From contig CAVSHO010000009.1 of the NCBI GenBank assembly GCA_963727825.1, positions 1 through 64,000 of the forward strand: 64,000 nt of DNA, read 5' to 3'. The position numbers and the translations under genes were made by a program. The notes under the pieces are model-generated. The model worked only from the letters and a program-made list of their open reading frames with translations. It did no database searches and was not told the origin of the DNA. Of this stretch, positions 34,330 to 59,003 are shown one piece after another. How positions within the stretch are numbered: the stretch's first letter is position 1; the number at the start of each line of letters is the position of its first letter. Origin of the DNA: Ignavibacteriota bacterium. GTDB taxonomy: Bacteria > Bacteroidota > Ignavibacteria > UBA10030.

Positions 34330-34509
34330 TCCTTCAATACTCATAATCTGTCGTTACACAATACACTCATTACGCCCCTGTACGGAGATCCATAGAAAGG
34401 ACCTCCGATCGGGACGAAAAGAATTCAATTAGAAATACTATTTCATGAGAACCAATTTCTTAGTGTCAGAAAAATTTCCAGCTTGCAGCCGATAGAAATA
34501 CACGCCGCT
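34330..34509 (-). repeat. ~180-bp repeat covering a CTD gene end and its 3' UTR (second copy at 53763-53941)
   Basis: Near-identical sequence spanning the YFYRLQ.G.FSDTKKLVLMK codons, the stop codon and about 108 bp downstream. Confidence 0.9.
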
Positions 34510-36294
34510 GCCAAGGTTCTGTGCGTTCAACACAACGGAGTACTGACCAGGGCCCTGCGTTGTATTCACCAGCGTTTGAACTTCTCTGCCTAAGATATCG
34601 AACACCTTGAGCGATACGATCGATGTTTTCGGTATGTTGTACTGGATGGTGGTCGACGGATTAAATGGATTCGGGAAGTTTTGTTCCAATTGATAATGAG
34701 ACGGTAATACGGCAGCCGATGTTTCCACGCCAGTTATTTGCTTACCCATTACAAATTGTGCTAACCATTGGAACGCAGGTCTATATGTACCATCACTATT
34801 AACCAGGTAGGCAGTGGTTACCCATGTTGGAGGTATATATCCCCACAGGGTTATTCCTTTTATTGCCGGATGTCTCCACAGTGGAGGAAAATACTTTTCG
34901 TATTGTTGTAATTGATAGTTATCATCGGGGGTTCCAAAGTCGCTATTATTCCCCATGTCAAATTCAGAAATATATACCGGCAATCCGGTCGCACCAAGCC
35001 TGTCGAGATTATGAATGAGCAGAGTGGTGTCAAAAGGCTGCAACTGACCACTGTGTCCCTGGTCGGCAATACCATCGATGACGCCTCTATCTTTTAATAA
35101 ATTTATTATTTGCAGATATGTGGTCGTGGCTCCAGTATCATTGATAATGTTGTAATCGTTTATCAATAATTTTGCGGTAGCAGGCATGTATTTCCTTGCT
35201 AATTTAAAAGCATTTATTACCCAGTCCCAGCCTGTTGTGCCAGAACCACCTAGAGCTTTAATGTAATTTGCATGACCGTTTTGTCCGTCCGGTGGAGTAT
35301 GTCCGGCAAGAGGTTCATTCACTACATCTACCATGTCAATTTTTGGATATCGTTGTCCTACCATCATAAACCATGTTTGGATCCAATTATATTGTGATGC
35401 TGAGTCAAGACTGGATATCCAGGAAGGCTGCTGAGATCCCCAGATTAAATTATGATGTTTATACACCAGGTGATTGGCGATTGCATAATTATATTGCGCA
35501 TCCAGTACTTTCCAGTTCCATTGCGATGTGTCAGCGGCTGAGCCTGCAACGGATCCCCACTTACCGGCGTTTCCTGGAGTCAGCTGGGTCCAATAGTTAA
35601 TAAAAGTATTTTCGGGAGGCTCGTTAGGTACATTCCCTAAAAATTTATACTGCCCTGCTGCAAGCGCCGGGCCTTTCCATATCTTACTAGAATCCACTGG
35701 ACCCGTAATCACTTCAGTAATTTGCAAATTATCGATATAGATGCTGCGTCCAGTATTTGCTGCATAGCTAAATTGAAAAGTCGCTCTGATTAATGTGTCG
35801 TTGGGAGTAAATTGCATTGTGATGTTGTACCAATTTGTGCTCGAAATAGGGAAGAGTTTTGAATTATATATTATGGCATTATTATTCAAGTCATCTACAC
35901 CTACATTGACTTGCGCACCTCTTTGGCTGGCTTTGACCCAAACAGAATAATTATACGTTGTGCCTGGCTTAACAGGGACCTTCGCTTGAACAGCCTGGAT
36001 GTCCCAAGCAGTCGCATCGGTACCATTGACGGTAACTTCCAAAGCCCGGAGTCCTTCTTCCACATTGAGAGAATCGCTCACAATTTCAAACACGGCCGGC
36101 GGATTAATCCCTGATCCAGATTGAAACCACCATCCGTTAGTTACTGAAACGACGCCCGTGTCAGAACTCTCGAAGCCTCCGTTTGTAACAAGCTGGGCAA
36201 AGACATCTGCGGTAAATCCTACCAGCAGCACCGGCAGTATCACAAACCAACCGGCTATTCCAAGTTTTAATGAATTATTCATGTGATCCTCCAA
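34438..36294 (-). CDS. Endo-1,4-beta-xylanase GH10 with CBM4/22-like module and T9SS CTD
   Basis: NGGFES CBM start, TPGNAGKW, HNLIWGSQQP, acid/base DVVNEP, INDYN, nucleophile YISEFD and GITLWGY. Confidence 0.9.
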   Translation of the reverse strand: MEDHMNNSLKLGIAGWFVILPVLLVGFTADVFAQLVTNGGFESSDTGVVSVTNGWWFQSGSGINPPAVFEIVSDSLNVEEGLRALEVTVNGTDATAWDIQAVQAKVPVKPGTTYNYSVWVKASQRGAQVNVGVDDLNNNAIIYNSKLFPISSTNWYNITMQFTPNDTLIRATFQFSYAANTGRSIYIDNLQITEVITGPVDSSKIWKGPALAAGQYKFLGNVPNEPPENTFINYWTQLTPGNAGKWGSVAGSAADTSQWNWKVLDAQYNYAIANHLVYKHHNLIWGSQQPSWISSLDSASQYNWIQTWFMMVGQRYPKIDMVDVVNEPLAGHTPPDGQNGHANYIKALGGSGTTGWDWVINAFKLARKYMPATAKLLINDYNIINDTGATTTYLQIINLLKDRGVIDGIADQGHSGQLQPFDTTLLIHNLDRLGATGLPVYISEFDMGNNSDFGTPDDNYQLQQYEKYFPPLWRHPAIKGITLWGYIPPTWVTTAYLVNSDGTYRPAFQWLAQFVMGKQITGVETSAAVLPSHYQLEQNFPNPFNPSTTIQYNIPKTSIVSLKVFDILGREVQTLVNTTQGPGQYSVVLNAQNLGSGVYFYRLQAGNFSDTKKLVLMK

Positions 36295-36557: not shown

Positions 36558-36645
36558 GTAGAGTCCCCGCCTGCGTCGGGCAGGCGATCACCAGATCGGA
36601 AAATGATGTTAACATTGTTTCATCCAGTCGGTGACTGGATTCTAC
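36558..36645. repeat. Inverted GTAG-REP doublet (REPIN-like) with a 19-bp insertion
   Basis: GTAGAGTC[insert]CGATCACCAGATCGGA ... TCCAGTCGGTGACTGGATTCTAC. Confidence 0.65.
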
Positions 36646-36655
36646 ACCAATTCGG

Positions 36656-36847
36656 TTATCGTTCACCTTTCCCATATTCTATCATTTCAATAATATATGC
36701 CCCTCTTTTATTTCTAATGAATGGTTTGGGATAATTATAGCGCTTATATTTCAATGAATCCATTACAGCAGTCGGAATAATTTCGAAACAAAGGATGGAA
36801 ACTGAAAGCAAGAACACCTTCAGATAAAGAATTTTATTTTTGTTCAT
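36656..36847 (-). pseudogene. N-terminal remnant of a paralog of the 39597-41942 membrane protein
   Basis: MNKNKILYLKVFLLSVSILCFEII resembles MNNAKGVNLNILVVSAVVICFEII, then diverges. It sits in the same position after a foldase gene. Confidence 0.6.
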
Positions 36848-36975
36848 TTTTCGAAATATTGGCCCGATAAGGTTAAGCTTAAAAAACCGATTGGGAAGAT
36901 TGAGAGAACATTAGAAGCATAAACCAGCGTTTCATCATCTCCAATAAATCGCAAGAAAGCTGACCATTCCATATA

Positions 36976-38752
36976 TTAATGCTGCTTGATTCCGATAGAC
37001 GCAAGATTCTGATTTAGAACATCCTTATAGACTATTACGGAATATTTTATCTTAAGCCGCTCTCCAACAGATTGAGTGATTTTATTTCTGTAATAATCCG
37101 TAAAATCATCTGCAATGGTTTTTTTTGCCTCATCATACGTTAATTGTTTCTCTTCTCTTGTTACTATACATTTGATGAGCGCGTATTGAACTCCTTTTGC
37201 CGTATCGTAATATTCGATCGGCCCGGCAGTTTCGTTTAATTTTAATTTAAAAGCGGCTTCACTCAAATAAGGCGGTTCATCTCCTCCTAAATATGTCCTT
37301 AGAATACCGTCGCGGCCTCGAATGTAAGTTTTTACCAATATTGTTGGGGCGAGATTTTCAAATCTAATATTCTGCTCAAGCTTATGTTTCGCTTCATTGA
37401 TAACGGTTTTGCTCGAATCTATAATTGCATAAATATTTACTTTTGCCAATTGATAATATAACGAATCTCTATTAGCCTCATAAAATTCTTTCAGCGTTTT
37501 CTCGGTGACTGCAGGAATTCGTTCTTCAATTTCATGGCGATTATAGAGCTTAATAATTCTAGATCTTAAAACAGGATTCGTTGTTTCAGGATTAAGGACA
37601 TTTTTCTCAAGATTCAATTTGTAGGCTTTGTTTACAATCATATCGGTTCGCAAAGCTTCCAGGATATAATCTTTTACATCTTTTTCAGTCACTGCCATTT
37701 TCTTTCCCCACATCAAAATGTCATCCAGCAGGCGAAGATATTCTTTAAGATCGACTTTCCCTTTAGAATACTTCAGAATAAGAAAATTATTCCCCTGGGA
37801 AATTGCATGGCGCAAAGTATCCGAATAATAGCTTAGATAGAAACCAGGAATATTCGACCATCGTGCAATCTGTTGTAATGCTTTTTTATTCCAGTTTAAT
37901 GTTTTTTCATCAATGGGATTTTTCTTGGCTTGTTCAAACTGCCGCAGGCTGAAATCCCCGTAGTCGTTCATCAAGAGTTTTTCGAATATCTTCCTTTACT
38001 TTTTCAAACGGAGGTATATCTGCTTTAATAATGTTAACGACTTTGGTAATACGGATCGAGCCCTTATACTCTATTATTCGTTCCTCATTAACCGGAAGAT
38101 GAAAAATCGTGTAATATATATGGCTCATGAGACTTGCTCTCCAATTCAGAGGCTGCATCAAATCGCCCGGACGCGTTGAATCGATCTCATGGGAGTATTG
38201 TCTTGCTAATTCATCGAAATCTGCGCCATTGTGCAATTTTGTCATAATACTATTTGCAAGGGATTTCAATGAATCCAAATGTTTTCGCGATGCATTTTGC
38301 AGTTTTAGAAGAACAATTTGCTTATAGACGACTTCCTTACCCATTTCCCTATATGCATTTTTTATGGAGTCTTCGTTGACATATCTATCATAAAATTTGG
38401 TATTGTAATATCGAATAACCAATTCTTCACTAATTGGGCGTTTAATGCTCTGTATTAATTCTGCGTTTTCATTTAATCCCAAGGTAAAAAAATCAATCAA
38501 TTTTAACTGGTTAACAATCTTATCATCCAGGGCTTCATAAAAATTCTTTGCCGGGTCATTCACATGCCTGTACGCATAAAAGTTATCGCGCCAATATTCC
38601 TGTAACTCGGTAAAACTAATTGTATGGCTACCTGCCATTTTAACTATAATATTCTGCTGAGATGTGTCTTGCGCATCGCACTGAACAAAGACTATAACAG
38701 CCATAAGCATCTGAAGAGAAAGAATTGAAAAGCGCTGCAATCTCCGTGTCAT
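36976..38752 (-). CDS. SurA/PrsA-like peptidyl-prolyl isomerase (foldase), copy 2 (frameshift near 37950)
   Basis: Signal peptide, GADFDELARQYS, LKEFYEANRDSLY, AAFKLKLNETAGPIEY and QLTYDEAK. Paralog of 41945-43715. Confidence 0.8.
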
Positions 38753-38832
38753 AAGTAGAAATCCATAATTATTAATTTCAATGAAATAGATTCGGCTTTA
38801 ATGGAGGTGAAATGTACAAAAACAATTATAAA

Positions 38833-38869
38833 CATAAAACCCTGATAAATTATTATCAGGATTTTTATG
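38833..38869. terminator. Hairpin after the T9SS remnant
   Basis: CATAAAACCCTGATAA pairs with TTATCAGGATTTTTATG. Confidence 0.6.
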
Positions 38870-38897
38870 AAAAACTTAAATAAGATATAACTGCATC

Positions 38898-39470
38898 TTA
38901 TTTCACAAGTGTTTTCTTCTTCATCTGTGTAAAGTCGCCGCCGGTCAATCTATAGAAATACACTCCAGAGGCCAATCTTGTCGCATCGAATTGGACCTTG
39001 TATGAACCCACTGCAGTGAATCCATTTACCAACGTCGCAATTTCTTGTTCAAGAATATCAAATACTTTCAAGCTGACATTTGAGGATTCGGCGAGAGAGA
39101 AGGAGATTGTCGTGGTCGGGTTAAACGGATTCGTGTAAATTTGGTTGAGGCTGAATTCACTAAGTACCACATTATGTGTTCGCTCTACGGCAGGAAGATC
39201 TGAACCGTTATCCAAAGCCTTTTGAATTGCCGCATATTCAGCAGTTCTTTTTGCAAGCCACGCAACTTTTTGAGTCGGGAACCAGTTCAAATTACCAACA
39301 GGGAAACCATTTTCACCATCTGTCAATAATGTTGCATTAGTGTATGAAAGGTCAACCGGAATTGGCAAGTCAAATAGACATAGTTGGCTGCGCCGGTATT
39401 GTCTAAACGCCAATCCGGTAATACAGCTGTACCGGAAGTATCAACTATGGAAACAGAACATTTCTATAAA
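38898..39470 (-). pseudogene. 3' remnant of a T9SS-sorted TBDR-partner paralog
   Basis: IVDTSGTAVLPDWR..(frameshift)..LPIPVDLSYTNATLLTDGENGFPVGNLNWFPTQ aligns to the 43938 protein. The CTD is degenerate (QIYTNPFNP) and the 5' part is missing. Confidence 0.8.
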
Positions 39471-39596
39471 GCTGCACTGTAAGCAGATCTTTGGAACTCT
39501 TAAATTGGGGATTATTATTTTTTGGAAAGCTCATTTAATGAAAGACGATCTTTATCGGCAAAAATATGCTTGATTATACCTTTGGATATTTTCATA

Positions 39597-41942
39597 CTAG
39601 TTCTGTTTACTGGTAGCAGAACCCGAACTCAAAAAAATAAAGATGATTAAATACATACTTAATCCGACAAAAAAGCTTGAAGTAAAACCAAAAGTCATGG
39701 ATAGGATAACTGCCAATACCGAACCGAGAACGGTAAAAATCCCATTCACTCCATACATCCATGGTATATATTTTACCAAATTGTTCTGCTTTAGCATTTG
39801 TATCCCGGTCGGGAAAGGAATACCAAGTAAAAAACCGAACGGCGACAGTAAAACAAAACAAACAATCGCTCGAATAACCAACCCATATGCCAGTAATTCA
39901 TTTAGAATGGATGGATGGATGACAAACAGGAGCACGCCGGCAACTACTATTAAACCTGAAATATGTTTCAAACGTTTTACAACATCCTGTGAATATATTT
40001 GTCCTCCGAAAAAGCTTCCGGCTCCCATTCCAACCAGCAGAGAGCCAAGCAAAATGGATAAAGCAATCGTCGGTGAGCCAAGATAAAGAATGAATTTTTG
40101 GAATAGCGATATTTCCAAAATCATAAATCCGATGCCAATGCAAATGAAAACTAAGAGAGGAAGAAACACCTTATCTTTCTCTTTGTCCTTTTTATTTTTT
40201 TTCAATTTTGATTTTATCTTCCTAAAAGGGACTATTACCGACAATAAGGCAACCACCGCTGTTGCGGCTAGAAGGTTCACAAAGTCACCGGGCACACCTT
40301 TATCTACCTTATAAAAAAATGGGCTGTCATCGCGAACAGGAGATATATCAGAGCTATTTCTGGTTATTATGTCTCCGAGAGAGTGTTGCCCATTTTTAAT
40401 AACCTGTAACAGAATATTTTCAGTTTCATTGTTAACAGGATTATTGAGAAAAGGGAGATATGTTACCCGAGGAAAATCGGCAGGTAAAGACTTTGCAACT
40501 TTTTCTATAGCTTTTATTTCATCAACCGTATAAGCAGATTTTTTAATTACGATTGTTGGCGCATAATCGCTGCCCAAAATTATAAAGTGATTCGGCACAT
40601 CGGAATTATCAATCCCGTTTTCTTTAAAAGCATATAAAGTCGTAATAATAAGTCTAACAAGTTCCCATCTGTTGTGTAAAGTAAAAATTAGCTGACCGTT
40701 TTGAGTTAAATTATTTAAGTAATCCTTTATCGCTTCCACTGTTAGAAGAAAATTCTCATTGGAAGCAAGCCCGTCAATATTCTGCAGCTGTTTGGTTGAA
40801 GGAAGGGCCAGGACAATGATATTGTAATGCTGCCGGGTGCTTTTTATGAAATGGCGGCCTTCAGCCACTTCGATTTTCACACTTGGAAAATTTGTATAAA
40901 TACCTCCGTTAAAGTCACTGTATTTTTTTACTATCTCTACAAAATCCGGGTTCACTTCCACACCGGTAATTTTTTGAACCCCTCCAAGAATTCCTGTAAG
41001 AATTTCTCCCCCGCCGCCAGGACCTATAACCAGCATATTTTCACTTTCTTCTTTAGTCAGAAAAAGAAAAGGAATTGCCGTTGAATGGTGCAGCAAAATC
41101 TTATTAAGAAGTGTATCATGGCGTGCAATGTTCCCATTGAACTTGTACATTTGGGACCCTGCCGCGCCGTCGATGAAAAGATCTTTAATAATATTTTGGT
41201 TGTTATATTCGACTAAATCCGATCTTCCATTTATGCTCCACCTGCTATCGATGATATTGGGATTTATATTTGGATCGTCATAGGTATAATAAATGTCCTT
41301 TTCAGGAAAGTTTCCAATCGGAATTTTCCCTAATAACTCCCTTTTCCCAAAAACTGTCAACACAATAGCCAAACTGATAAGAGCTAGATACAGCAAAATT
41401 TGTTTTTTCTTTTCAACATTCAAATAATTAATTGATGAAATAAATAGAACAAGAGCCAAAAATAGAACGGCATTTGCAGCATTGAATAAATTGAAAACGT
41501 AAATTGATAAGACAGACCCTAATGCTGCGCCAATGAGATCCGAAGCATAAATTCTAAAACCGGCACTTGCATAATTGCTAAAGAACTCAGCGTATACGAT
41601 TCCAGCAAAAAAGAAGGGGAAAAAAAGGAAGGAAAAATAAATGTACGGGTTAGTTATGGATACGATAATTTCCAGTACGATAAATAATATAAGTGAAATA
41701 CCTGAAAGGAAGATGAACTTGCCGAATATTTGGGGACCTTTGGTTGACCCCTCTTCAGGTTTTATTTTGTAATAGGAATAAATTCCGCCGCTTCCCAGCC
41801 CCAAAATAGCCAGGGACAAAATTATAAAAGCATAATTTTGAACAAATATTAAGGAAGAAATTCTTGTGGATATTATTTCAAAGCAAATAACAACTGCTGA
41901 GACTACAAGAATATTGAGATTTACGCCTTTAGCATTGTTCAT
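39597..41942 (-). CDS. Polytopic membrane protein: two MFS-like TM bundles flanking a spermidine-synthase-like class I SAM-binding domain
   Basis: About 7 N-terminal TMs (YASDLIGAALG), a central domain with LVIGPGGGGEI, GVEVNP, EGRHF and DDSPFF, and about 7 C-terminal TMs (GIGFMILEI, LGIPFPTG, YGVNG). Confidence 0.85.
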   Translation of the reverse strand: MNNAKGVNLNILVVSAVVICFEIISTRISSLIFVQNYAFIILSLAILGLGSGGIYSYYKIKPEEGSTKGPQIFGKFIFLSGISLILFIVLEIIVSITNPYIYFSFLFFPFFFAGIVYAEFFSNYASAGFRIYASDLIGAALGSVLSIYVFNLFNAANAVLFLALVLFISSINYLNVEKKKQILLYLALISLAIVLTVFGKRELLGKIPIGNFPEKDIYYTYDDPNINPNIIDSRWSINGRSDLVEYNNQNIIKDLFIDGAAGSQMYKFNGNIARHDTLLNKILLHHSTAIPFLFLTKEESENMLVIGPGGGGEILTGILGGVQKITGVEVNPDFVEIVKKYSDFNGGIYTNFPSVKIEVAEGRHFIKSTRQHYNIIVLALPSTKQLQNIDGLASNENFLLTVEAIKDYLNNLTQNGQLIFTLHNRWELVRLIITTLYAFKENGIDNSDVPNHFIILGSDYAPTIVIKKSAYTVDEIKAIEKVAKSLPADFPRVTYLPFLNNPVNNETENILLQVIKNGQHSLGDIITRNSSDISPVRDDSPFFYKVDKGVPGDFVNLLAATAVVALLSVIVPFRKIKSKLKKNKKDKEKDKVFLPLLVFICIGIGFMILEISLFQKFILYLGSPTIALSILLGSLLVGMGAGSFFGGQIYSQDVVKRLKHISGLIVVAGVLLFVIHPSILNELLAYGLVIRAIVCFVLLSPFGFLLGIPFPTGIQMLKQNNLVKYIPWMYGVNGIFTVLGSVLAVILSMTFGFTSSFFVGLSMYLIIFIFLSSGSATSKQN

Positions 41943-41944
41943 CT

Positions 41945-43715
41945 CTATTTGGAAGCGATTGCATTGGATAGAACGTTTTCAAATATTTTCACCCTGTATT
42001 TTGTCTTTAACCTTGCATCGACCTCATCCGAAATTTGTTGGCGGTAATAATTTTTGAACTCTTCTTCTATTATATTACCTTTAACGTCGTCATAAGTAAG
42101 CTGCTTTTCCGGTTCGATCTGAAAACATTTAATAACAGCAAACTGTTTCCCATTCTGTAGAATCGTCATATTCAATCGGTCCGGCGGATTCGTTTAAGCT
42201 CAATGTAAATGCAGCCTTTGCCAGGTAGTCTCCGCCTGGAGTCCTATAAGCTTTAAGCGACCCATCGCGTTCACGAATAAATACTTTATCCCACCAGGTA
42301 TGTGAGACCTTTTCAAATGGAGTTCCTTTTCTAATTTCATTTATATCTGCAGCGGCCTTTGCGCTATCCGAATAGATCCTTGCATAGATGTACACTTTCT
42401 TTAACTGATAAAATATTGGGTCTTTATGATCTTCATAGAATTTATGTAATGCTTCCGGTGTCGCTTTTGGTATACTTCCTTCAATAACTGCTTGATTGTA
42501 TAAATATATAAGCCTGTCTTCTATAGCGAGGTTTTGCGTATACGGTTCTAATAATTTTTTCTCCAAGCCAAGTTTCTTTGCGGCCATAATAACGTTGTTA
42601 TCGTACATAATCTCTAAAATAAAATCTTTGACACTGACAGAGTTTAGCGTAGTATTGGGATTCAAAATTACGACTTCTTCCAGCAGCCGGAGATATTCCT
42701 TTAAATCAACTTTACTATTATTGTATGAAAGTATCTCAAAATTATTACCATTCGAAATTGCATGTTGAATAGTATCTTTATAAGCACCGCCATAGAAGCG
42801 GTCATCCTCGGTCGACCATTTCGCAATTTGGTCTAATCCGGTTTGATTCCACTTTATCGAGCTCTTATCAATAAGTCCATGCTTAAAGTTTTCGTACGCC
42901 TTATTATATTCCTCATAGTATCCCTTCTTAAGTTGTGACATTATCTCAGTTTTCATTTTTTTAAACGGTTTCAATTTTATTTTTTTAATGTCCAGAACCT
43001 TTACTATGTGAAATCCGTCCATAGATTCTATAACTCGGGTAAATCCTTTTTTAAGTCTAAAAATGACATTTGCAACTGGGTCAATCATTGTTTCTGACCA
43101 GGTCACTTTCCTTTTAGCATTTAGGTTAAAACTATTTAACGAATAAGACTTTGCGAGACTCTCGATATCATAATTCTTGCTAAGACCGGTTTCTATTCCT
43201 AATGCAATTGTTTTTAGTGAGTCAAGCTTCTCTTTTGTCGGATGTGCGGGAAACGGCAATGTTATATCATTACATATAAGTTCCTTATCCATTTCTTTAT
43301 AAGCTTCGGCTGCCCTTCTTTCATTAACATACTTTTCCACAAAACTTTTATCAAAGAAACTGCTCAATAATTCATTATTAATATTACGACGTATTTTCCC
43401 CATCAAATCTTGATTCTCATCTAATCTTCTATCAAAAAAATCAAAAAGTTGTAATCGATATTTTATCAGATCTTTCAATGCGTTTTTGTAAATATCGGAT
43501 TTGACACGGAACCTATTCTGGTACTTCCAGTCAGCTATATATTGCCTCAGGTCCTTTAGAGTTACCAAATAATTGTTATCTATCTTAGCCACTACTTCAT
43601 TATCGCCAATTATATTTGGTTTGTCTTGCGCATGGCCAACAAATGCAGAAAATAATATGAATAAAAACAGGCATTTTATTAATTTCATTAAAAGCTCCAT
43701 TAGTAAATCAGGCAT
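41945..43715 (-). CDS. SurA/PrsA-like peptidyl-prolyl isomerase (foldase), copy 1 (frameshift near 42155)
   Basis: Signal peptide, EVVAKID, IESLAKSYS, GFHIVKVLD, LHKFYEDHKD, AAFTLSLNESAGPIEY and QLTYDDVK. Confidence 0.82.
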
Positions 43716-43872
43716 AACCTGTCATAAAAATTCATTTGTAGAAATAAGGATTTCAATCCGTAAAATTCGTGGCGATCTTTTTCTCACGTTTTGTGAACTG
43801 CATGATCAGTCCAAAATGAGTATTTGACTTTTTTGTAGGCAGTATAAATAGAATCCGTTCTCTTCTCAATTA

Positions 43873-43905
43873 AATCAAAACCCCGGATAGACCGGGGTTT
43901 TGATT
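43873..43905. terminator. Perfect hairpin / bidirectional terminator
   Basis: AATCAAAACCCCGG-ATAGA-CCGGGGTTTTGATT. Confidence 0.8.
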
Positions 43906-43937
43906 GTATCATGTCATTATTAAGAAATGGCAAGAAG

Positions 43938-45708
43938 TTATTTCATCAAGACCATGCTCTTAGTAATTACATTATTTCCAGCTCTTAGTTCATATAAGTA
44001 AATGCCGCTCGACAAACCGGATGCATTGAAATTAACGTTATATGAATTAGCAGCCTGATAACCGTTTACCAGAGAAGCAACTTCCTGACCCAGCATGTTA
44101 TAGACTTTCAATGTGACATTTCCAGCCTTAGCAATTGAATAGCTTATAGTTGTGCTTGGGTTAAACGGATTCGGATAATTTTGCTGCAACTTGAACCCCT
44201 GTGGAAGCTCTTGTTGTGTAGTCGCAACACCAGTTAATTTCCCTGTGCTCAAGACATTCTGAATGCTAGCTAATTCAGTAGCTTCTTGAGCTTTCCACGT
44301 TGCATATTGAGTTGGGAACCAATCTAAGTCTCCAACCGGGAATTTACCAAGTCCGGCAGTCAACAAAGTAGCATCAGTATAGGAAAGATTAATAGGAATC
44401 GGCCAGTCAGCATAAGTGAAATAGGTGGCTTCTGGATTACTTGCTTGACGCCAGGATTTCAAACTACCCGTGAAAGATGTGTCAACTGTTTTTGTTGAAA
44501 AAGTTGCTATTGTCGTAAGCTGCGTCGTGAACAATACATCAGTATTTTTAAAAGTAGGTTTTGTATTCTCAATCCATCCTTGAACGTTGACTTTTGGATA
44601 GGTTGTCTTATTCGCAATTACGGCTAAAGTTCTTGAGTTCGCTTCAATCATCTGGGTGACCCACGCTGTATTGCCATCTACCTTGTTAGTATTTTCTGTT
44701 GCAGCGATAGTAGAAAGTGATGGATCCCAATAAACTAAGTTCTTGTCAGCATAAAAGCTTGCACCGTTAGCAGCAAAAGTGGAATCTCCTTTTAGGTTAA
44801 CAATACCCATAGGCAGGCCATCCGGATCAACTTCACCTACATCAACGTTTGAAAGGACAGAGCAATAGGGTTGTATCGTGGTATTTACAAAAATATTGTT
44901 TGTTACACTGAATTTCGGAATATCGGCAGCGGAATTCATAAACACATAACCGGAGCAATCAATGAAATCATTGTGATTGAAAAGATTTCTACCCGTACTA
45001 TATGTAGGTCGTGTTTTGAACAGACTGCCCTGGGTATTCACGAAAGTACAATTTTCAGCCATAATTGTATCCACGTTACCAAAGTAGTCAATAACACCGC
45101 CGTTACGCCTGCAAGTATGACCGTCGAGATTTACAAAGTAATCGTTCGTCAAGAAGCAGTCCATATTGGATGCGGGAGATATTACCACCCAAAAATTATG
45201 CTCTATAATACAGTTATCAACTCTGAGTTTCGTACTTGCGTTGCCATTAAAGAAGCCCCATCCTTCGCCGCCGGCAGAATTACCAATTTCAATATCGCAG
45301 TTTGCTACAGTCAAGTCACCACCAGGGGCTCACGTTCATGCCTCCTGTGGAGGAACCGCCTTGGTAAACAGCACCTTGAAGAATCGGCGGCGGAGTACCT
45401 GTATTTATTTTTAAAGATGTTTTTGTTTCACCCATAACAATAGTTTTATGCTTTCCACTCGATGTAGGATTATTAACGAGCGAATAAACTCCTGCGTTGT
45501 GCAGCATATATACACGAGTTGCCGGTGACAATGAGTCTGAATTCATAAGTGAATACAGAGTATTCTGGCCATTATAATCACCATCATCTTTTACCCAAAG
45601 AGTGTCGCCGCTTGTTTTCAAGATATATTGTGGATCAGGAGATCCCGTAGCAAATACCAATGATACTAGAAGCAACATCATACCGAAAAGTAATATCGCG
45701 TTCTTCAT
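43938..45708 (-). CDS. T9SS-sorted TBDR-partner protein, probably beta-helix-like (frameshift in C-run near 45326)
   Basis: Signal peptide, repeated xNCxF / NNIF strands, WPIPINLSY..GKFPVGDLDWFP and a QNYPNPFNP CTD. Removing one C gives SPGGDLTVANC. Confidence 0.8.
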
Positions 45709-45830
45709 ATTTAGAACTCCTTAACTGAGTTGTTTTTTGTAAATTTTAGTGAATTAGTTACGCTTTGTTTCTTTCTTTATGAATTCCATCTACCCCCTTC
45801 CTTTAAATATTATATTATTAGAATAGACCA

Positions 45831-48800
45831 TTAAAAAGAATATCTTAGATTCAGCTCGAATGTTGTCGGTGAATATAAGACTGAGACTAAGTTTTGAGTT
45901 ATTGGAGCATCCGGATTCACTCTGTAATTACGATATGTATTTATTCCATTGTGAAAAATATTTACTCCATTCAAAGCTATGCTCAAACCATCAATAGGCA
46001 GATTTTGTTTAAGCGTAAAATCCCATCTATAAATATTGCCGGTAAAGGAAGATTCTTCAGGCCTTATACCCACGTTGTTTATTATATTACCGGTCATACT
46101 AAATGATATACGACCGGAGAAGCCTTTATAGTCGACGCCGAGCGCAGCGTTCACCACATCGTCTGCCTGATTAATTAATCTTCCCTCATACGTCGTATCA
46201 ACAGTTATATATGTAGTCTGGTTCACTTTCCTGCCGTTGACTACGACCGGGATAAGAACCGGATTATTTTCAATTATACGATAAAGCGTATTTGATCCTG
46301 ATTTTGTGTAGTTTACATCTAACACAACAGAATTAAACGGTTTTGGCAAATACCAGAAATTTGTCTGCCAGTCAATTTCAACACCTCTAACAAAGCCGGG
46401 GTTAGGATTATTTAAAGAAGTATAAACTATATCTTGGGGCCTTGTTTGATAACTAAATCTGTCCATTAAAAATGCTGAGTCAGGAATGAAGGGGTTATTA
46501 GTGTACTTAGAAAGATTTCCATAGTAAACTTGGGTACCATACATTTGATTTTTTATTACTTTATAGAATCCGTCTATTGTAAATAGACCTATTGAATTAT
46601 CGTGAATAGTCGAAACAACATCACCGTTTTGTACTGTAGCAGGTAATAGGTATGGATTTCCTGCTTCATAATCTGCACCAGGATAAACAGCAAGTTTAGG
46701 AATAATTGCTGTATAATCCGGGCGGGAAATACCGGTCGTATAGGCAAGTCTACCATCGAACCAATCGTTAAATTTATATTGGAGCTGCACATCGGGAAAT
46801 ACATTTACATCCGTTCGGTTAACGTTGCAACTATTCCAGGGAACAGTGTGATTTATACCAGTATCATTGACAGCAATTTGGTTTCCATTTGTACAAATTG
46901 CGTCACCATAAACACTATGAATAACAAATGTAAAATTGGCATGGTAAATCATATTATAACTTTCGTAACGGGCACCGCCAAGTAAAGTTAACTTTGGCCC
47001 AATATTAAAAGTGCCCATCAAATAACCCGCTGAAAATTGCTCTGCACCGTTCCAATCATTTTTCCAGCTATCATCTTTCTTTACCTTGTCCGCCCAGCCT
47101 TGTTCTGATACTTTCAACCATGGATCATAGATATCCGGATCTATTACATACTTAAAACCTCCATTAGTAAAATTATAAAAACTATTTAGAAAATATTGCC
47201 CTCTCGTAAAATTAGGATCCATAACTTGTGTAAGTCTCAACTGATTTTGAGGAGTGAGGGTTACACCCGGAAAGTAATTATTTGATGCCGGATTTGCGTA
47301 CAAATCCCCAGGGCCATGGGCAAAATCCTCATCGACATTATTTTCACGTGTCGTTCTTATATACTTACCGCCCATTTTAAATTTTGCCGTAAAATCATTA
47401 GAAAAGTTAACCGGCGCCGTTACATCAAAAGATCCATTATATAAGTGCTGGCGAAACTGATTGGCGATATCAGAAACCCATCCTGCTATCGTTGCACTAT
47501 CAGCATCTGCCGGGTTGAGATTGTCAAGGATTTGACATGCTTGCGTAAGTGTCATATTACGCTCTGCGGTAGAGGAATAATATGTTATCGGCTGGCCATT
47601 AGAGACACCAAATGGTGCATTATAACTAGACTGATTTGTAAAATCGGTCCATGGATTATACGCATGCCCAAATATTGTATATTGTTCTGTGGCAGAGTGC
47701 GATAAGCTTGCTTCTATTTTTATATCACCAAAAGTATTTTCTACCTGAAGTGCATTAATCCATAAATCCTTTCCATACAGTTCGCGATCAGCGGTATAGA
47801 TTACACTCGTACCATCAAAACCTAGTTGAATCTGGCTATTATTTTGATCCGTAACATTACCGGCATAAGTATTCTGCAAAACTATTTTACCATTCGGAAG
47901 TTTATAATCCAGTATCAGACTCCCGCCGCTGTTTTTGACAAGATCGTCATCGTATTCGAAGTTTGCACCTGTAGCATGGTAGGTAGCCTGACCGTATGCT
48001 AAACTGCCTGATCCATCGATTGTCTCTGAAAGGGAAGCGGATTGGTTCCCTCCATCAGAACGGTCCATATTCCCTTGTATGAAAACACCTAATTTATCAT
48101 CAAAGAAACGCTGACTGATACTTGCCCAAAACTTATAATTATCTGCTACATGATCTGACGCATTGTAATTCCCTTGACTTAGCACGTCAAAATGAAGACC
48201 CGATTGGGCTTCCCTTATTTTTAAATTAACAGCGCCGCCAATTGTATTTGCATCCATATCCGGCGTAAGTGCTTTTATGACTTCAATGCCGGAGAGCAAA
48301 TTTGATGATATAAAACCAAGATTTGTTGCACGGTTGTTCATGTCCGTTGAAGGTAATTCAATACCATTTAATAGGACTTGATTCAATTTAGCCTGGACTC
48401 CACGGATAACTACCTCGTCCCCGTTCATAAGGGAAACACCGGGTAAGCGGCTCAGTGCAGTAGCTGCATTATCATCAGGAAGCTCATGGATTCTTTCAGA
48501 AGAAACAACATTGGTTATTGTGTTGGAAGATAGCTGCTGGTTGATTGCCGCTTTCTGCCCTCTCGCCTGAGCGGTTACAATGACTTCTTCGCCTTCAATG
48601 GCTTGAGCCTTGAGTGAAAAATTTTGCTCCAGCTTTTCACCCGATTTCACTTCTATAGGAATTTCTTTCCCTTGATAACCAATGTAGCTAACTTTTATTG
48701 TGTATGAACCGGCAGGAATCGAGTTTATAGTATATTTACCATCAATATCAGATGGACATCCCAAGCTGGTACCTTTTATTAAAACATTTGCCCCGTACAA

Positions 48801-48926
48801 AGCCTCACCGGTTGTTGCATCTGTTATAGTGCCTTGAATTTGTCCTGATTCCTGTTGCGCCAACAGGAAAGGAGTACCAAGCAACAGAATAGAAATGAAT
48901 GCGAAAATTTTTATAAAAGTTTTCAT
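45831..48926 (-). CDS. TonB-dependent receptor, Xanthomonas/Caulobacter-type (not SusC)
   Basis: CarboxypepD_reg-like N-domain, AQARGQKAAINQQ, ELPDDNAATALSRLPGVS, IEVIKALTPDMDAN.IGG.VNL and C-terminal LNLRYSF. Confidence 0.92.
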   Translation of the reverse strand: MKTFIKIFAFISILLLGTPFLLAQQESGQIQGTITDATTGEALYGANVLIKGTSLGCPSDIDGKYTINSIPAGSYTIKVSYIGYQGKEIPIEVKSGEKLEQNFSLKAQAIEGEEVIVTAQARGQKAAINQQLSSNTITNVVSSERIHELPDDNAATALSRLPGVSLMNGDEVVIRGVQAKLNQVLLNGIELPSTDMNNRATNLGFISSNLLSGIEVIKALTPDMDANTIGGAVNLKIREAQSGLHFDVLSQGNYNASDHVADNYKFWASISQRFFDDKLGVFIQGNMDRSDGGNQSASLSETIDGSGSLAYGQATYHATGANFEYDDDLVKNSGGSLILDYKLPNGKIVLQNTYAGNVTDQNNSQIQLGFDGTSVIYTADRELYGKDLWINALQVENTFGDIKIEASLSHSATEQYTIFGHAYNPWTDFTNQSSYNAPFGVSNGQPITYYSSTAERNMTLTQACQILDNLNPADADSATIAGWVSDIANQFRQHLYNGSFDVTAPVNFSNDFTAKFKMGGKYIRTTRENNVDEDFAHGPGDLYANPASNNYFPGVTLTPQNQLRLTQVMDPNFTRGQYFLNSFYNFTNGGFKYVIDPDIYDPWLKVSEQGWADKVKKDDSWKNDWNGAEQFSAGYLMGTFNIGPKLTLLGGARYESYNMIYHANFTFVIHSVYGDAICTNGNQIAVNDTGINHTVPWNSCNVNRTDVNVFPDVQLQYKFNDWFDGRLAYTTGISRPDYTAIIPKLAVYPGADYEAGNPYLLPATVQNGDVVSTIHDNSIGLFTIDGFYKVIKNQMYGTQVYYGNLSKYTNNPFIPDSAFLMDRFSYQTRPQDIVYTSLNNPNPGFVRGVEIDWQTNFWYLPKPFNSVVLDVNYTKSGSNTLYRIIENNPVLIPVVVNGRKVNQTTYITVDTTYEGRLINQADDVVNAALGVDYKGFSGRISFSMTGNIINNVGIRPEESSFTGNIYRWDFTLKQNLPIDGLSIALNGVNIFHNGINTYRNYRVNPDAPITQNLVSVLYSPTTFELNLRYSF

Positions 48927-50401: not shown

Positions 50402-50413
50402 TAAAAGAAGATA

Positions 50414-53762: not shown

Positions 53763-53941
53763 TCCTTCAATACTCATAATCTGTCGTTACACAATACACT
53801 CGTTGGGCCAGCTACGGAGATCCGTAGAAAGGACCTCCGATCGGGACGAAAAGAATTCAATTAGAAATACTACTTCATGAGAACCAATTTCTTAGTGTCA
53901 GAAAAACTTCCAGATTGCAGCCGATAGAAATATACGCCGCT
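53763..53941 (-). repeat. Second copy of the CTD-end / 3' UTR repeat
   Basis: Matches 34330-34509. Confidence 0.9.
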
Positions 53942-55594
53942 TGTAAGTCCAGTGCCGTTAAATGTAGCAATGTGTGTCCCGGCTTGTTGCACACCATTAA
54001 AGAGTGTCGCTACTTCCTCACCAAGAAGATTGTACACTTTCAGTGATACATAACCTCTCTCCGGAACCGAGTACTCGATCTGAGTAGTTGGGTTGAATGG
54101 ATTAGGATAGTTCTGACTAAGCTCATATTTTGCAGGAATACTACTTGACTGCTCCTTCACACCGGTAGTAATACCTTTTGTAAGCCATCCGTAAATAGTA
54201 TTATTTTCCGCCTGCTCTTGCGCTTTCCATGCAGTATATTGCGTTGGCCACCAGTGATACAGGTCTCCTAATGGGAAACCACTCATTCCAGCCGTCTTCA
54301 ATCTAGTGTTGGTGTACGATAGGTCTTCATCCATAGGCCATGAAGCAGCCTCATCTGATACAATATCGTAAGACCAGTCAATATTATCACCAGTTGACCA
54401 TCTACCCAACAAAAAAGTCTTGATGGCGTCCGTGTTGGTCGGAGGAAACTTTAAGCCCGGGTCTACAGATTGAATGAGTGTAGAAGTATCCATAGAGAGG
54501 TATGGCCATGTTGACTTTGTACTAAAGAGGCGCCTCGTATTTGTGCTTATCATAGGCATCGGTTTCGGTTTGAGATTGTCGGCAACGGTGGGATCAATGC
54601 TGAAAGGATTATTTGCCATATAATCCGTAAGCCATTTCTCTAAATAATAGGCGGTGTGAGTGAAAACTATATGGCGTTGACTTTCCGTAAATGGGAATGC
54701 TATGCCCGGTATTGAAAGAGTATCAACGTTTATTGTACCGCCGCTGGGGAAATTAACATCTTCTTCCCGGTTTGCGACTACATCTCCATACATCCATGTA
54801 TTCACAAAAAGGCAGTTATTAACATTAAACCAATACCAATACCCTGATTTAATTGGATACATCATAGTATTAAGAAAAGTAACGTGATTAAACCAAACAT
54901 GATCCATATACTCAGGAGTCTCTTGCATAATACCATATCCAATGTTTGCGAAAGTGCAATTCACGAAAGAAACACTATCGTTATGCCACGTTGTGCTTTG
55001 AAAAGGAAATGAAAGAGCCCTGCCGTAGTATCGCAAGTGCTGGTCAATGCAATTTCGGAAATAACAATTTTTGAATGTTGCGGTTAAATGAGTACTTCTT
55101 TCCTCTACACATGTATAAGAATAATCAAAGATAACATCTTCGAAGTTGGCGATATTTTTATTGCGCGTGCTGTCATTATCAATTTCAAGATGATCACTCA
55201 ATTGCGCAGGGGTCGTGTTTGCATATAACAACCAGACATTCTTCAAAGAAATATCACCAAAGACATCGAAATTATAGTTCCAAGTTACACCGCCTCCGGC
55301 AAGCGACATTATTATAGGAAGTGCTGTGGCCGCTGTTGTACCAGGATCCGGTGCAGTGATCGTGAGCAATGTCCCGGCTGGAGTGGTTATCGGTCCAGTA
55401 AGAAGGTAATATCCTGCAGCATCCAATTGGAAAACTGTATTGGAGAGAGTTTTGCTGTTAATAGCGGCTTGGATTGCATTATTTAGATTCCCTCCACTAG
55501 GGCCGTCGCTGGGAACTTTCACGATTGTCTGCCCGTATAGCGACATAGAAAAAACAATCGCAATACAAAGAAAAACATAAATACAATTCTTCAT
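53870..55594 (-). CDS. T9SS-sorted TBDR-partner protein (paralog of 43938-45708)
   Basis: Signal peptide, FKNCYFRN / FVNCTFAN / NNCLFVN strands, WPMDEDLSY..GFPLGDLYHWWP and QNYPNPFNP. Confidence 0.85.
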   Translation of the reverse strand: MKNCIYVFLCIAIVFSMSLYGQTIVKVPSDGPSGGNLNNAIQAAINSKTLSNTVFQLDAAGYYLLTGPITTPAGTLLTITAPDPGTTAATALPIIMSLAGGGVTWNYNFDVFGDISLKNVWLLYANTTPAQLSDHLEIDNDSTRNKNIANFEDVIFDYSYTCVEERSTHLTATFKNCYFRNCIDQHLRYYGRALSFPFQSTTWHNDSVSFVNCTFANIGYGIMQETPEYMDHVWFNHVTFLNTMMYPIKSGYWYWFNVNNCLFVNTWMYGDVVANREEDVNFPSGGTINVDTLSIPGIAFPFTESQRHIVFTHTAYYLEKWLTDYMANNPFSIDPTVADNLKPKPMPMISTNTRRLFSTKSTWPYLSMDTSTLIQSVDPGLKFPPTNTDAIKTFLLGRWSTGDNIDWSYDIVSDEAASWPMDEDLSYTNTRLKTAGMSGFPLGDLYHWWPTQYTAWKAQEQAENNTIYGWLTKGITTGVKEQSSSIPAKYELSQNYPNPFNPTTQIEYSVPERGYVSLKVYNLLGEEVATLFNGVQQAGTHIATFNGTGLTSGVYFYRLQSGSFSDTKKLVLMK

Positions 55595-55666
55595 GTTATA
55601 TCTCCTTTATAATTTTAAAAGTTAGGTTTACTAAAATTACATGCGTTTTCATTTGGCTAATATTAT

Positions 55667-58600: not shown

Positions 58601-59003
58601 GATTATTGGGCTTTTCCTCTTGCGTCAAAATAAGAAGACCACTTTCTGTTACTGAATATTGGATTTCCATATCCTGAAGTATTTGATCAAGCGCCTCAGA
58701 CAATGTCGCTACCTCAAGAGTGAGATTGATTTTTTTGTTCGTCTTAATTAAATCATAATCCAACACGGGTCTGAGATGAACCGCTACAGCAACTTTTTTT
58801 ATAGCGCTAATCACCGGCTCATTCACTAACCTGATTGAAATAGGTCCATACACCGTTGGTGAGATTGGTGGAGTAGGTTTATTTACAGTTTTTGATATAT
58901 TTGCCTGAACTTGCTCAGGAATTTCCTCTTGGGCTAGTACTAATTGGTAAGAAATCACAATTACAAAGAATGCTATCACCCACACCTTAGAACAATAATT
59001 CAT
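55667..59003 (-). CDS. TonB-dependent transducer with N-terminal STN signalling domain (frameshift in a 7-nt homopolymer near 56280)
   Basis: STN-like segment KKINLTLEVATLSEALDQIL..IQY, then AQARGQVQAINQQ, ELPDFNAASAIGRLPGVS and C-terminal LGIRYTL. Confidence 0.9.

Follow-up and report, generated by a model that had tools for sequence, protein, structure and literature searches.

Work on PULs is built almost entirely around the Bacteroidia pair SusC/SusD, and an inner-membrane MFS transporter is a usual part of these loci. The CUT loci of Xanthomonas and Caulobacter are reported to use TonB-dependent receptors (TBDRs) of the TonB-Xanth-Caul type to scavenge plant carbohydrates without SusD (PMC1790865), and the 'atypical PUL' chu_1276-chu_1280 of Cytophaga hutchinsonii, likewise SusD-less, is reported to encode a GH9 endoglucanase together with outer-membrane proteins resembling TBDTs and proteins that bind glycans at the surface (PMC12016534). 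The xylan locus of Rhodothermus marinus (Rmar_1067-1081) is described as holding Xyn10A (CBM4-CBM4-GH10 with a CTD), a TBDR, a cell-attached hypothetical protein and a periplasmic/extracellular hypothetical protein, as well as a SusC/SusD pair; the genes after the TBDR are listed there merely as hypothetical proteins (PMC6987092).

We found no description in the literature of the gene core analysed here, which on balance probably, though far from securely, forms the centre of a system for using xylan (glucuronoxylan) without SusD, with the roles proposed below. The initial annotation had reported a co-oriented run of a TBDR, a T9SS protein, a hairpin, a parvulin protein and a 14-TM protein, and the four genes and the hairpin are all found where it had placed them, on the minus strand of the window (the whole stretch of 64,000 nt that was analysed). 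The features referred to in the text are as follows.

45831..48926, minus strand: TBDR, 1031 aa, CarboxypepD_reg-like domain at the N-terminus
43938..45708, minus strand: T9SS-sorted partner, about 590 aa when intact, split into 45316-45708 and 43938-45314
43873..43905, minus strand: terminator-like hairpin, 14-bp GC-rich stem with A and U tracts at its flanks
41945..43715, minus strand: SurA/PrsA-like double-parvulin protein 1, about 590 aa when intact
39597..41942, minus strand: predicted 14-TM MFS transporter, 781 aa, with an inserted spermidine-synthase-fold domain
38898..39413, minus strand: second partner remnant, 171 aa, pre-CTD segment and CTD only
38836..38865, minus strand: second terminator-like hairpin, 13 pairs
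36976..38752, minus strand: parvulin protein 2, full length, in two pieces (37934-38752 and 36976-37974)
36656..36847, minus strand: MFS N-terminal stub ORF, 63 codons
36532..36737, strand not given: dispersed repeat of about 205 nt; it overlaps the stub ORF in its 3' part
34438..36294, minus strand: CBM4_9-GH10 xylanase with a T9SS CTD (Pfam)
53870..59003, minus strand: second TBDR and partner paralogue, without a parvulin or MFS gene
55667-56326 and 56187-59003, minus strand: the second TBDR of that pair, split, with an STN domain
53870-55594, minus strand: partner paralogue of the second TBDR
59124-60224, minus strand: FecR-type anti-sigma factor
60328-60894, minus strand: ECF sigma factor
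61596-63122: MFS_2 (PF13347, GPH-type) sugar transporter, also encoded in the window

Several T9SS-anchored proteins are encoded at the locus, and repeats and an IS lie near the cassette. The spans 43938-45708 and 41945-43715 measure 1771 nt each, which is no multiple of three; altogether this assembly carries frameshifts at three sites, in the partner gene and in both parvulin genes, which the initial annotation had not mentioned. That of the partner gene lies at a CCCC run near 45322-45325, and the base at 45325 is missing in related-strain contigs (X1, 5.27 of 5.27 depth; X2, 318.3 of 318.3). In parvulin gene 1 (ORF 42129-43715, the final ~60 residues being in a different frame, up to the TAG at 41945-41947) it lies near 42152, where one base is extra compared with orthologues, and the base at 42152/42155 is again missing in related-strain contigs (X2, 371.6 plus 244.6 of 616.2; X3, 3.94 of 3.94). 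Since the surplus base is thus absent at two of the three sites from these contigs, which come from other public runs, the breaks in the partner gene and parvulin gene 1 are assembly errors or strain-specific. RNA-library contigs of relatives (88–99% alike) lie on the TBDR and partner genes and on parts of the parvulin gene, and a single 319-nt contig spans the parvulin-MFS junction, although neither is proof of transcription.

The TBDR has the architecture of a 22-strand-barrel TonB-dependent receptor, with CarbopepD_reg_2, Plug and TonB_dep_Rec_b-barrel domains all above their Pfam cutoffs (Plug 47.8 bits against 23.9; barrel 52 against 27). A receptor with an N-terminal CarboxypepD_reg-like domain beside a surface partner, co-localised CAZymes, and an ECF sigma/anti-sigma pair with an STN-bearing TBDR near the locus are all features shared with the SusC/SusD xylan PULs of Bacteroidota. 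Unlike in those PULs, the receptor fails the SusC/RagA model (TIGR04056, 72.5 bits against 368.25, the match being confined to residues 29-176), the locus encodes a putative parvulin chaperone of its own, besides an MFS protein with a spermidine-synthase-fold insert, and no SusD-family lipoprotein was found beside the TBDR, the only Pfam match of the next gene being Por_Secre_tail. The receptor scores just under the cutoff of TIGR01782 TonB-Xanth-Caul (299.7 bits against 310), a likeness to the CUT loci, from which the locus differs in its FCB-group carriers, its T9SS-sorted partner and its parvulin and MFS/SpdS genes.

In place of a lipoprotein, the partner is predicted to be a T9SS-anchored beta-helix protein, with a signal peptide, a right-handed beta-helix, a helical linker and a type A CTD. 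The sorting domain scores above cutoff in two models (Por_Secre_tail PF18962, 44.8 bits against 27; TIGR04183, 49.3 against 23), by sequence the N-terminus is hydrophobic, no lipobox cysteine is found in the protein, and export as a T9SS type A cargo is predicted. When an intact orthologue was modelled (pLDDT 69.8), its beta-helix aligned with residues 425-747 of BcAlyPL6 (7dmk_A; Z 26.7, rmsd 3.0, 296 aligned). By their description, the C. hutchinsonii partners are beta-sandwich, SGBP-B-like proteins set apart from this one, and no parvulin or MFS/SpdS gene is reported for that locus in the accessible part of the paper (PMC12016534). Exported by T9SS and held at the cell surface, the partner would have a glycan-binding, possibly glycan-processing role, namely that of SusD or SGBPs beside SusC, and the TBDR would import xylo-oligosaccharides.

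A conserved terminator-like hairpin parts the TBDR and partner genes from the parvulin and MFS genes. At this locus it begins 36 nt and ends 68 nt past the partner stop, and the intergenic fold is unusually stable (z -2.9; none of 200 shuffles folds equally well). Of 49 related loci, 38 show a stem of 8 bp or more no further than 100 nt from the partner stop; shuffles average 2.7 and never exceed 6. Such a hairpin would set the level of TBDR and partner above that of the two downstream genes.

Parvulin protein 1 contains two parvulin-type stretches and matches Rotamase_2 (PF13145, 49.6 bits against 27), Rotamase (PF00639, 30.7 against 21.7) and Rotamase_3 above cutoff, and its family has profile matches to PrsA (6vj6, 4.5e-10), Cbf2 (3rfw, 5.7e-8) and SurA (1m5y, 4.9e-4). 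As in SurA, PrsA, PpiD and Cbf2/PEB4, which are extracytoplasmic as well, the parvulin domains are flanked by helical chaperone-type regions; the protein has a signal peptide here, and members of other lineages have a lipobox-like cysteine, which they share with PrsA. In contrast to SurA and its kin, it matches no equivalog model (SurA NF008038, 19.7 bits against 394), and its gene sits inside a carbohydrate locus. A conserved active-site histidine pair is the canonical motif of parvulin-type PPIases. These histidines are not conserved in the family, which makes isomerase activity doubtful: in a 24-row alignment, domain 1 has histidine in one row at the first site and in nine at the second, and domain 2 has it at neither motif-aligned site. 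The parvulin gene always follows the TBDR-partner pair, which fits the dedicated foldase that had been proposed, in the sense of a dedicated chaperone; the protein would be periplasmic, and its main task would be to chaperone the TBDR, the beta-helix partner or both in the manner of SurA/PrsA.

The MFS gene begins with an ATG 2 nt past the stop of parvulin gene 1. In the model of its product (pLDDT 85.7, pTM 0.84), 12 core helices align to NorA (28vj_B; Z 32.2, rmsd 3.1, 338 of 358 residues aligned), and a structural search with the TM part returned fifty MFS entries at Z of at least 21; so modelled, the TM part is a true, canonical twelve-helix MFS transporter fold, with the Pfam model MFS_1 matching at only 19.9 bits against 33.4. 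Two extra hydrophobic helices (178-197 and 552-581), with Lys-rich loops before the first and after the second, flank an insert of about residues 198-551, which, being placed between them, most likely faces the periplasm by topology rules. The insert has the N-terminal beta-hairpin and Rossmann domain of the spermidine synthase fold (Foldseek 4yuv_A, 5.6e-7, TMt 0.60; profile match to spermidine synthase 3o4f, 3.4e-11). In aminopropyltransferases, the motifs GGGDG, EID and D-x-x-D-P carry the acid residues; here they are replaced by GPGGG, EVN and LPST, invariantly in the family. Weak matches to the membrane-bound spermidine synthase PRK03612 (30–38 bits against 472) extend over both the TM region at the N-terminus and the synthase domain. 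The locus protein differs from it, and from the proteins named 'fused MFS/spermidine synthase' at NCBI, in having lost the acid residues and in carrying the domain in mid-protein, where two additional helices enclose it. At the same time, an invariant glycine-rich loop (G307-G311) and many invariant polar residues are retained, E329 is conserved where class I methyltransferase folds have their ribose-binding acid, and the insert may have an enzymatic or nucleotide-binding role.

The initial annotation had taken this protein for a membrane SAM-dependent transferase that, together with the parvulin foldase, covalently matures the TBDR or its secreted partner. The tight linkage of the four genes (see below) would fit such a pathway, as would the unvarying place of the parvulin gene downstream of the TBDR-partner pair, the complete spermidine-synthase/class I methyltransferase fold of the insert, and its conserved glycine-rich loop and E329. 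On the other hand, the TM part is that of an MFS transporter, the acid residues of aminopropyltransferases have given way to others, the protein stays below cutoff in every methyltransferase and SpeE model (speE equivalog, 31.4 bits against 249.55), two of 10 genomes have the other three genes without the MFS gene, and the likely periplasmic position of the insert, away from SAM, argues against a SAM-dependent transferase. We consider the maturation pathway unlikely, and read the MFS protein as the inner-membrane step of SusD-less xylan uptake, not as a SAM-dependent maturase. It would take sugars, once imported and trimmed in the periplasm, across the inner membrane, and its degenerate spermidine-synthase-fold domain would be a periplasm-facing ligand-binding or docking domain, not an aminopropyl- or methyltransferase.

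Linkage was examined in 80 loci seeded by the MFS gene, one genome per species, using a panel of tblastn searches, and counted in the 54 with at least 8 kb upstream of that gene. The parvulin gene is present in 52 of these and the partner in 51, and TBDR, partner and parvulin gene lie on the same strand in 43. Because the TBDR lies just past the 10-kb flank in all five that were checked of the nine loci without one, all three upstream genes are present in at least 48 of the 54, so that the linkage supposed by the earlier proposal holds well outside this genome. In 35 of the 54, no more than 300 nt separate the parvulin gene from the MFS gene, and among 24 loci examined the spacing of stop and start is -4 to +2 nt in nine (one labelled Balneolaceae). 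Carrier loci come from peat, soil, sediment and hot springs, and from records labelled Ignavibacteriota, Calditrichota, 'Neomarinimicrobiota', KSB1, Balneolaceae and Rhodothermaeota, labels of MAG records that may be wrong; a cultured carrier, Rosettibacter primus (L060), has all four genes.

In a second sample of 301 genomes drawn evenly from the phylum, the parvulin family occurs in 10, and a high-scoring MFS protein (at least 820 bits) in eight, all of them among those 10. The two genes lie on one contig and strand, at most 11 kb apart, in seven of the eight, and are parted by contig ends in the remaining one. Eleven genomes of the sample with weaker MFS relatives have no parvulin-family match. 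The two parvulin carriers without the MFS gene still have GH10, TBDR, partner and parvulin genes, so the trio works without it; in one of this sample, L097, these repeat the R. marinus order exactly, and no MFS/SpdS gene was found. As regards inheritance, parvulin clade labels need to change only twice on the MFS tree (shuffle mean 13.7; none of 500 shuffles as low). In the genome of the window, the PPIase and MFS genes occur only at this locus, and many other T9SS cargo genes have no such neighbour. Mere hitch-hiking in a mobile carbohydrate island, with parvulin and MFS proteins functionally unrelated to the TBDR-partner pair, might be suspected from the patchy distribution among relatives (10 of 301 genomes for the parvulin family) and from the nearby repeats and IS, but the order TBDR, partner, hairpin, parvulin, MFS is kept across species at protein identities down to 26–46%, order and orientation survive insertions of GH9, GH10 or GDSL genes, and overlapping stop and start codons are conserved, which leaves this explanation extremely improbable.

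Almost all carrier loci lie beside GH10/GH9/CE15/GH115 genes, and SGNH-esterase genes also adjoin. Considering the 63 loci of at least 12 kb, GH10, GH9, CE15, GH11, GDSL or GH3 genes are found in 57, and GH10, GH9 or GH11 genes in 44; Pfam annotation of 67 ORFs in eight diverse loci added GH115, CE15 and LacI. The window itself has the CAZyme and regulator genes of a PUL, with GH10 downstream and ECF sigma/FecR upstream. The conserved linkage of the four genes beside xylan genes, with no SusD, bears out the earlier suggestion of a glycan-capture module.

Nearby regulators differ by locus (ECF/FecR in the window, HK/LytTR in L005, LacI in L048 and L063). A 'transceptor', that is, a non- or weakly transporting MFS sensor whose periplasmic domain detects xylan breakdown products and signals to regulators, would account for regulator genes often being nearby and for the large conserved periplasmic domain, but the MFS protein has no output domain, it is constant where the regulators vary, and its gene is tightly coupled to the parvulin gene rather than to a regulator. 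We regard a sensor as very unlikely.

The direction of transport is a separate question. The best structural neighbours of the MFS protein are DHA1-type antiporters and exporters (NorA, Z 32.2; OxlT, 29.7; VMAT2, 29.3; SotB, 28.0; LtaA, 25.9), with sugar symporters lower (FucP, 25.1; SUC1, 24.1; LacY, 23.6), and since the nearest are not sugar symporters, neither direction nor substrate is fixed by the fold. The protein could thus be an exporter or flippase (for a glycolipid, a T9SS cargo anchor or a small molecule for periplasmic-domain modification) that serves assembly of the surface machinery and not sugar import, as the exporters and the lipid-linked disaccharide flippase LtaA among its neighbours, the many invariant polar residues of the periplasmic domain and the T9SS-anchored proteins of the locus could suggest. 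Against this, fold-level Z scores give no direction, and many T9SS cargo genes elsewhere in the genome lack a parvulin or MFS neighbour. Moreover, only two of the eight Pfam-scanned loci hold another inner-membrane sugar-transporter gene (L060, MFS_2 PF13347; L063, SSF), which would leave most of the eight without an importer. The MFS_2 transporter encoded in the window speaks against a sugar-import role of the cassette MFS protein; homologues of it are found in 4 of the 80 loci. An export role appears improbable to us, and sugar import the better reading. A Xan_ur_permease gene in L078 was left out of the sugar-transporter count.

Downstream of the cassette lies a second, decayed set in the same order, which had been described as a repeat of the first. 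The order stands, and the repeat does not: the two copies are only 30–47% identical and thus no recent repeat, and a local repeat was rejected since the second set is closer to another cassette lineage than to copy 1. The remnant 38898-39413 (Por_Secre_tail, 33.4 bits) shares 47% identity with the partner's C-terminal 173 aa and 61–63% with partners encoded in other genomes (L052 and L084). The C-terminal half of parvulin protein 2, whose gene is split near 37950, is 60–62% identical to those of L073 and L083 as against 44% to copy 1, and the tree places it in the other lineage with support of 96. In the stub 36656-36847 only the first ~26 residues resemble an MFS N-terminus, with 17–18 of 39 residues identical to second-lineage N-termini compared with 12 of 39 to copy 1. 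By sequence, the second set is what is left here of an old, paralogous lineage of cassettes, which other genomes have intact. The repeat 36532-36737 has five further copies of 194–210 nt and a partial one of 146 nt in the genome (94.6–99.0% identity), along with one weak 65-nt match (78% identity), and no match in Rfam.

Perhaps, though we give it little credence, the parvulin protein and the periplasmic MFS domain together form a dedicated relay between the TBDR and the inner-membrane transporter, in which a re-used chaperone scaffold carries xylo-oligosaccharides or holds periplasmic GH9 enzymes or esterases, and the dead transferase fold is the receiving dock; if true, this would be a new envelope-spanning glycan-uptake architecture in FCB bacteria without SusD. 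To our knowledge, neither a parvulin chaperone nor an MFS protein with a spermidine-synthase-fold insert has a described role in glycan uptake. A conserved SusD-less core beside xylanases in Ignavibacteria and, by their labels, in Calditrichota, Marinisomatota-type bacteria, KSB1 and Rhodothermia/Balneolia points to an undescribed way of plant-fibre uptake, for which Rosettibacter primus (four genes) and L097 (the trio, in the R. marinus gene order) are testable cultured candidates. The core could mark hemicellulose-utilisation loci where SusD-based PUL prediction finds nothing.

Checks of domains and open reading frames (ORFs) confirmed the positions that the initial annotation gave for a minus-strand gene cassette (36.6-48.9 kb of the window), which lies among the following features.

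45831-48926, minus strand: TonB-dependent receptor (TBDR), 1031 aa, with CarboxypepD_reg-like, Plug and barrel domains
43938-45708, minus strand: partner, signal peptide plus T9SS sorting domain (type A)
43873-43905, minus strand: hairpin with a GC-rich 14-bp stem, inside the 222-nt spacer between partner and parvulin genes
41945-43715, minus strand: parvulin protein 1, with two parvulin-type stretches
39597-41942, minus strand: membrane protein (MFS/SpdS), 781 aa, its ATG 2 nt past the parvulin gene stop
38898-39413, minus strand: C-terminal remnant of a second partner, 171 aa
38836-38865, minus strand: second hairpin
36976-38752, minus strand: second parvulin gene
36656-36847, minus strand: stub ORF of 63 codons, its initial ~26 residues matching the N-terminal end of membrane-family proteins
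34438-36294, minus strand: CBM4_9-GH10-CTD xylanase, downstream of the second set
53870-59003: second TBDR-partner pair, upstream of the cassette
upstream of the cassette: FG-GAP/ASPIC CTD protein
upstream of the cassette: FecR and ECF sigma factor
upstream of the cassette: MFS_2 (PF13347, GPH-type) sugar transporter

Rfam gave no matches across 34000-51000 (E up to 0.1), and a promoter scan was uninformative: its 51 sites are no more than shuffled sequence gives (mean 51.8). About 1.5 kb upstream of the TBDR gene (48927-50413) holds no genes; a repeat of ~105 nt, at about 49900-50002, occurs there and in six more copies elsewhere in the genome at 81-91% identity. Genes for surface-polysaccharide biosynthesis (Wzx, Wzy, Wzz, glycosyltransferases, Poly_export/SLBB) form a large cluster at 1-29193 of the window, and an IS-type integrase gene (22043-22738) interrupts it.

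The proposal that these four genes form a module held up in other genomes, where their homologues are linked both in a set of 54 loci and in a sample of 301 genomes. A reading from 41 relatives, in which the four-gene order was restricted to the genus, was overturned by the wider survey; it had misled because on the contigs of the more distant homologues (L003, L004, L006) only 2.8-4.3 kb is present upstream of the MFS gene. In the survey, a scan with the membrane-protein alignment, one genome per species, yielded 80 loci with flanks of up to 10 kb, which were searched with a tblastn panel, and counts were made on the 54 whose upstream flank reached 8 kb or more. The parvulin gene is present in 52 of these and the partner in 51, while TBDR, partner and parvulin genes lie on the same strand in 43/54. 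Nine loci were scored as lacking the TBDR, and in all five of those checked it lies just beyond the flank; L055 and L052 were scored without a parvulin gene, and at L052 one lies 10.8 kb upstream. The distant records carry their depositors' own labels of Neomarinimicrobiota, Calditrichota, KSB1, Balneolaceae and Rhodothermaeota, and in these the lowest identities are 39-48% for the TBDR, 33-43% for the partner, 26-40% for the parvulin protein and 46-57% for the MFS protein. A cultured carrier, Rosettibacter primus 4148-Me (L060), possesses the complete four-gene set. One 3.8-kb contig with an 82%-identical membrane gene (L034) is filed in a Methanosarcina MAG and is probably mis-binned.

The 301 genomes of the phylum were drawn evenly, with neither gene's neighbourhood as seed. 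Ten carry the parvulin family and eight a high-scoring MFS, all eight falling within the ten; in seven of the eight both genes lie on one strand at most 11 kb apart, and in the eighth the contig ends between them. The two parvulin genomes without the MFS gene keep a GH10-TBDR-partner-parvulin arrangement.

The spacing of the last two genes varies. The parvulin-MFS distance is at most 300 nt in 35/54 loci, and among 24 loci examined the parvulin stop and MFS start are separated by -4 to +2 nt in nine, overlapping or abutting in five. The parvulin gene stands apart from the MFS gene in 17 loci: in 15 of these a GH9, GH9 plus GH10, or SGNH/TPR gene lies between, and in the other two (L056 and L094) 2.4-2.9 kb without a panel match. 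A hairpin 3' of the partner gene is conserved in place, with a stem of at least 8 bp within 100 nt of the partner end in 38 of 49 loci (shuffle mean, 2.7).

A second set in the same order does follow the first, as the initial annotation had it in describing a repeated cassette, but it is not a repeat of copy 1. Identity between the two copies is only 30-47%, while the C-terminal half of parvulin protein 2 is 60-62% identical to the parvulin proteins of two other genomes (loci L073 and L083), and the stub shares 17-18 of 39 residues with MFS N-termini from that group, compared with 12 of 39 for copy 1. A FastTree phylogeny of 57 parvulin proteins, with local SH-like support, has two clades (support 96). 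Copy 1 falls in the 39-row clade, where the MFS gene adjoins the parvulin gene in 34 rows, and copy 2 in the 18-row clade, where GH genes intervene in 15. Low copy-to-copy identity, closer kin elsewhere and a separate parvulin clade thus rule out a local duplication. On the MFS tree the parvulin clades can be placed with 2 changes where shuffled labels need 13.7 on average, a fit which speaks for co-inheritance only, since kin share labels. The second partner and the second membrane gene are truly truncated, as no more matching sequence exists in any frame. Taken together, the identities, the stub match and the parvulin clades leave the window with one working cassette and the broken remains of another, from a second, paralogous lineage.

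A dispersed repeat of ~205 nt (36532-36737) extends over the 3' part of the stub. It has five other copies of 194-210 nt and a partial one of 146 nt in the genome (contigs C1, C7, C9 and C11; 94.6-99.0% identity); a further match, of 65 nt at 78%, is weak. The repeat is without an Rfam match and looks like a miniature mobile element. A same-genus relative carries a different wreck of the second cassette (L001:3585-4411, equal to L017:19971-20862), which retains GH9 and GH10 and has more left of the second MFS gene, the second partner and parvulin genes being absent. Most close relatives have an SGNH/GDSL esterase, with an N-terminal membrane anchor and C-terminal TPR repeats, directly 3' of the MFS gene (e.g. 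L001:10094-12034, and most loci in which parvulin and MFS genes adjoin); the window has none, and the remnant cassette occupies its place.

Three genes, those for the partner and for the two parvulin proteins, are each split over two frames in the window assembly. The break in the partner gene lies at a CCCC run, and parvulin gene 1 has one extra base near 42152 relative to orthologues. Related-strain contigs from other public runs have exactly one base fewer at 45325 (run X1, a 358-nt contig with 4 further differences, and run X2) and at 42152/42155 (X2 and X3); among the contigs listed, none crosses the break in parvulin gene 2, near 37950. Two more genes in the window are frame-split, the second TBDR (55667-59003) and a CTD protein (32611-34222), which with these three suggests many single-base indels in the assembly. 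Given these further split genes, we read the breaks in the partner and parvulin gene 1 as assembly errors or strain-specific changes, not family decay. Contigs from the RNA run give scant cover over 39.1-43.6 kb, cover being no measure of expression level. Two joints, 37758/42725 and 39080/44152, were dismissed as cross-mapping, as their sides are only 26 letters long and they join paralogous positions.

The TBDR scores below the cutoff of the SusC/RagA model and narrowly below that of TonB-Xanth-Caul. The CTD is the sole Pfam domain of the partner. The predicted model of an intact partner orthologue is a right-handed beta-helix (pLDDT 69.8), and its best structural match is to the second beta-helix domain (residues 425-747) of the PL6 lyases BcAlyPL6 (Z 26.7) and AlyGC (Z 22.1), a domain which we take to be non-catalytic; Foldseek returned only weak beta-helix and CTD matches (best 9.8e-4). 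Ahead of the CTD, the family has a strongly conserved segment, LSYT...T.G..GFP.GDL.W (window 44240-44330, 54250-54330 and 39280-39350), with a weaker form in CTD proteins beside two other TBDRs of this genome (G000 C9:219357 and C9:463564). The decayed partner retains exactly this segment and the CTD. The segment may be a TBDR-docking element.

The parvulin family profile matches PrsA, Cbf2/PEB4 and SurA, and among NCBIfam models no equivalog was assigned, all scoring below cutoff. The canonical parvulin histidines are not conserved, and a lipobox-like cysteine stands at the N-terminus in other lineages.

The predicted model of the MFS/SpdS protein (pLDDT 85.7, pTM 0.84) has 12 helices that superpose on MFS transporters (NorA, Z 32.2; 50 MFS entries at Z of at least 21), and both model and profile place a full spermidine-synthase fold at residues ~198-551; NCBIfam models again all fell below cutoff. 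Two extra hydrophobic helices flank this insert, with Lys-rich loops on their far sides, and from the MFS N-in rule together with the positive-inside rule we infer that the insert probably faces the periplasm. The insert has other residues in place of the acids characteristic of aminopropyltransferases. Its glycine-rich loop and E329 do not vary within the family, nor do many of its polar residues; an ESM Atlas search with the insert returned spermidine-synthase clusters only. The earlier idea of a SAM-dependent transferase that matures the TBDR or its partner is compatible with the spermidine-synthase fold but is weakened by the MFS transporter fold, the predicted periplasmic position and the replaced acids. 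Five distant homologues (L010, L012, L013, L014 and L015; 22-28% identity) all adjoin a protein-L-isoaspartate O-methyltransferase gene; they make up a distinct subfamily, which has a conserved neighbour of its own.

Among the 63 loci spanning 12 kb or more, 57 contain GH10, GH9, CE15, GH11, SGNH-esterase or GH3 genes, and Pfam searches with another 67 ORFs, taken from 8 diverse loci, added GH115, CE15-CTD and LacI, a set that points to glucuronoxylan. We found no description of the four-gene module in the literature passages covered; those of PMC3534657 and PMC5317091 do not mention it. After Xyn10A in R. marinus, a table in PMC6987092 gives a TBDR and then hypothetical proteins, and locus L097 has this order with partner and parvulin homologues. 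C. hutchinsonii has another SusD-less 'atypical PUL', according to the part covered of PMC12016534.

The MFS protein may be an exporter or flippase, or a sensor. Drawing on the linkage, folds and residue patterns, the simplest model would be a SusD-less xylan uptake system, in which a T9SS-anchored beta-helix partner would sit at the TBDR, a periplasmic parvulin-type chaperone would serve the TBDR and/or the partner, and the MFS protein would be the step at the inner membrane, its periplasmic domain, descended from a transferase fold, binding a ligand or acting as a dock.
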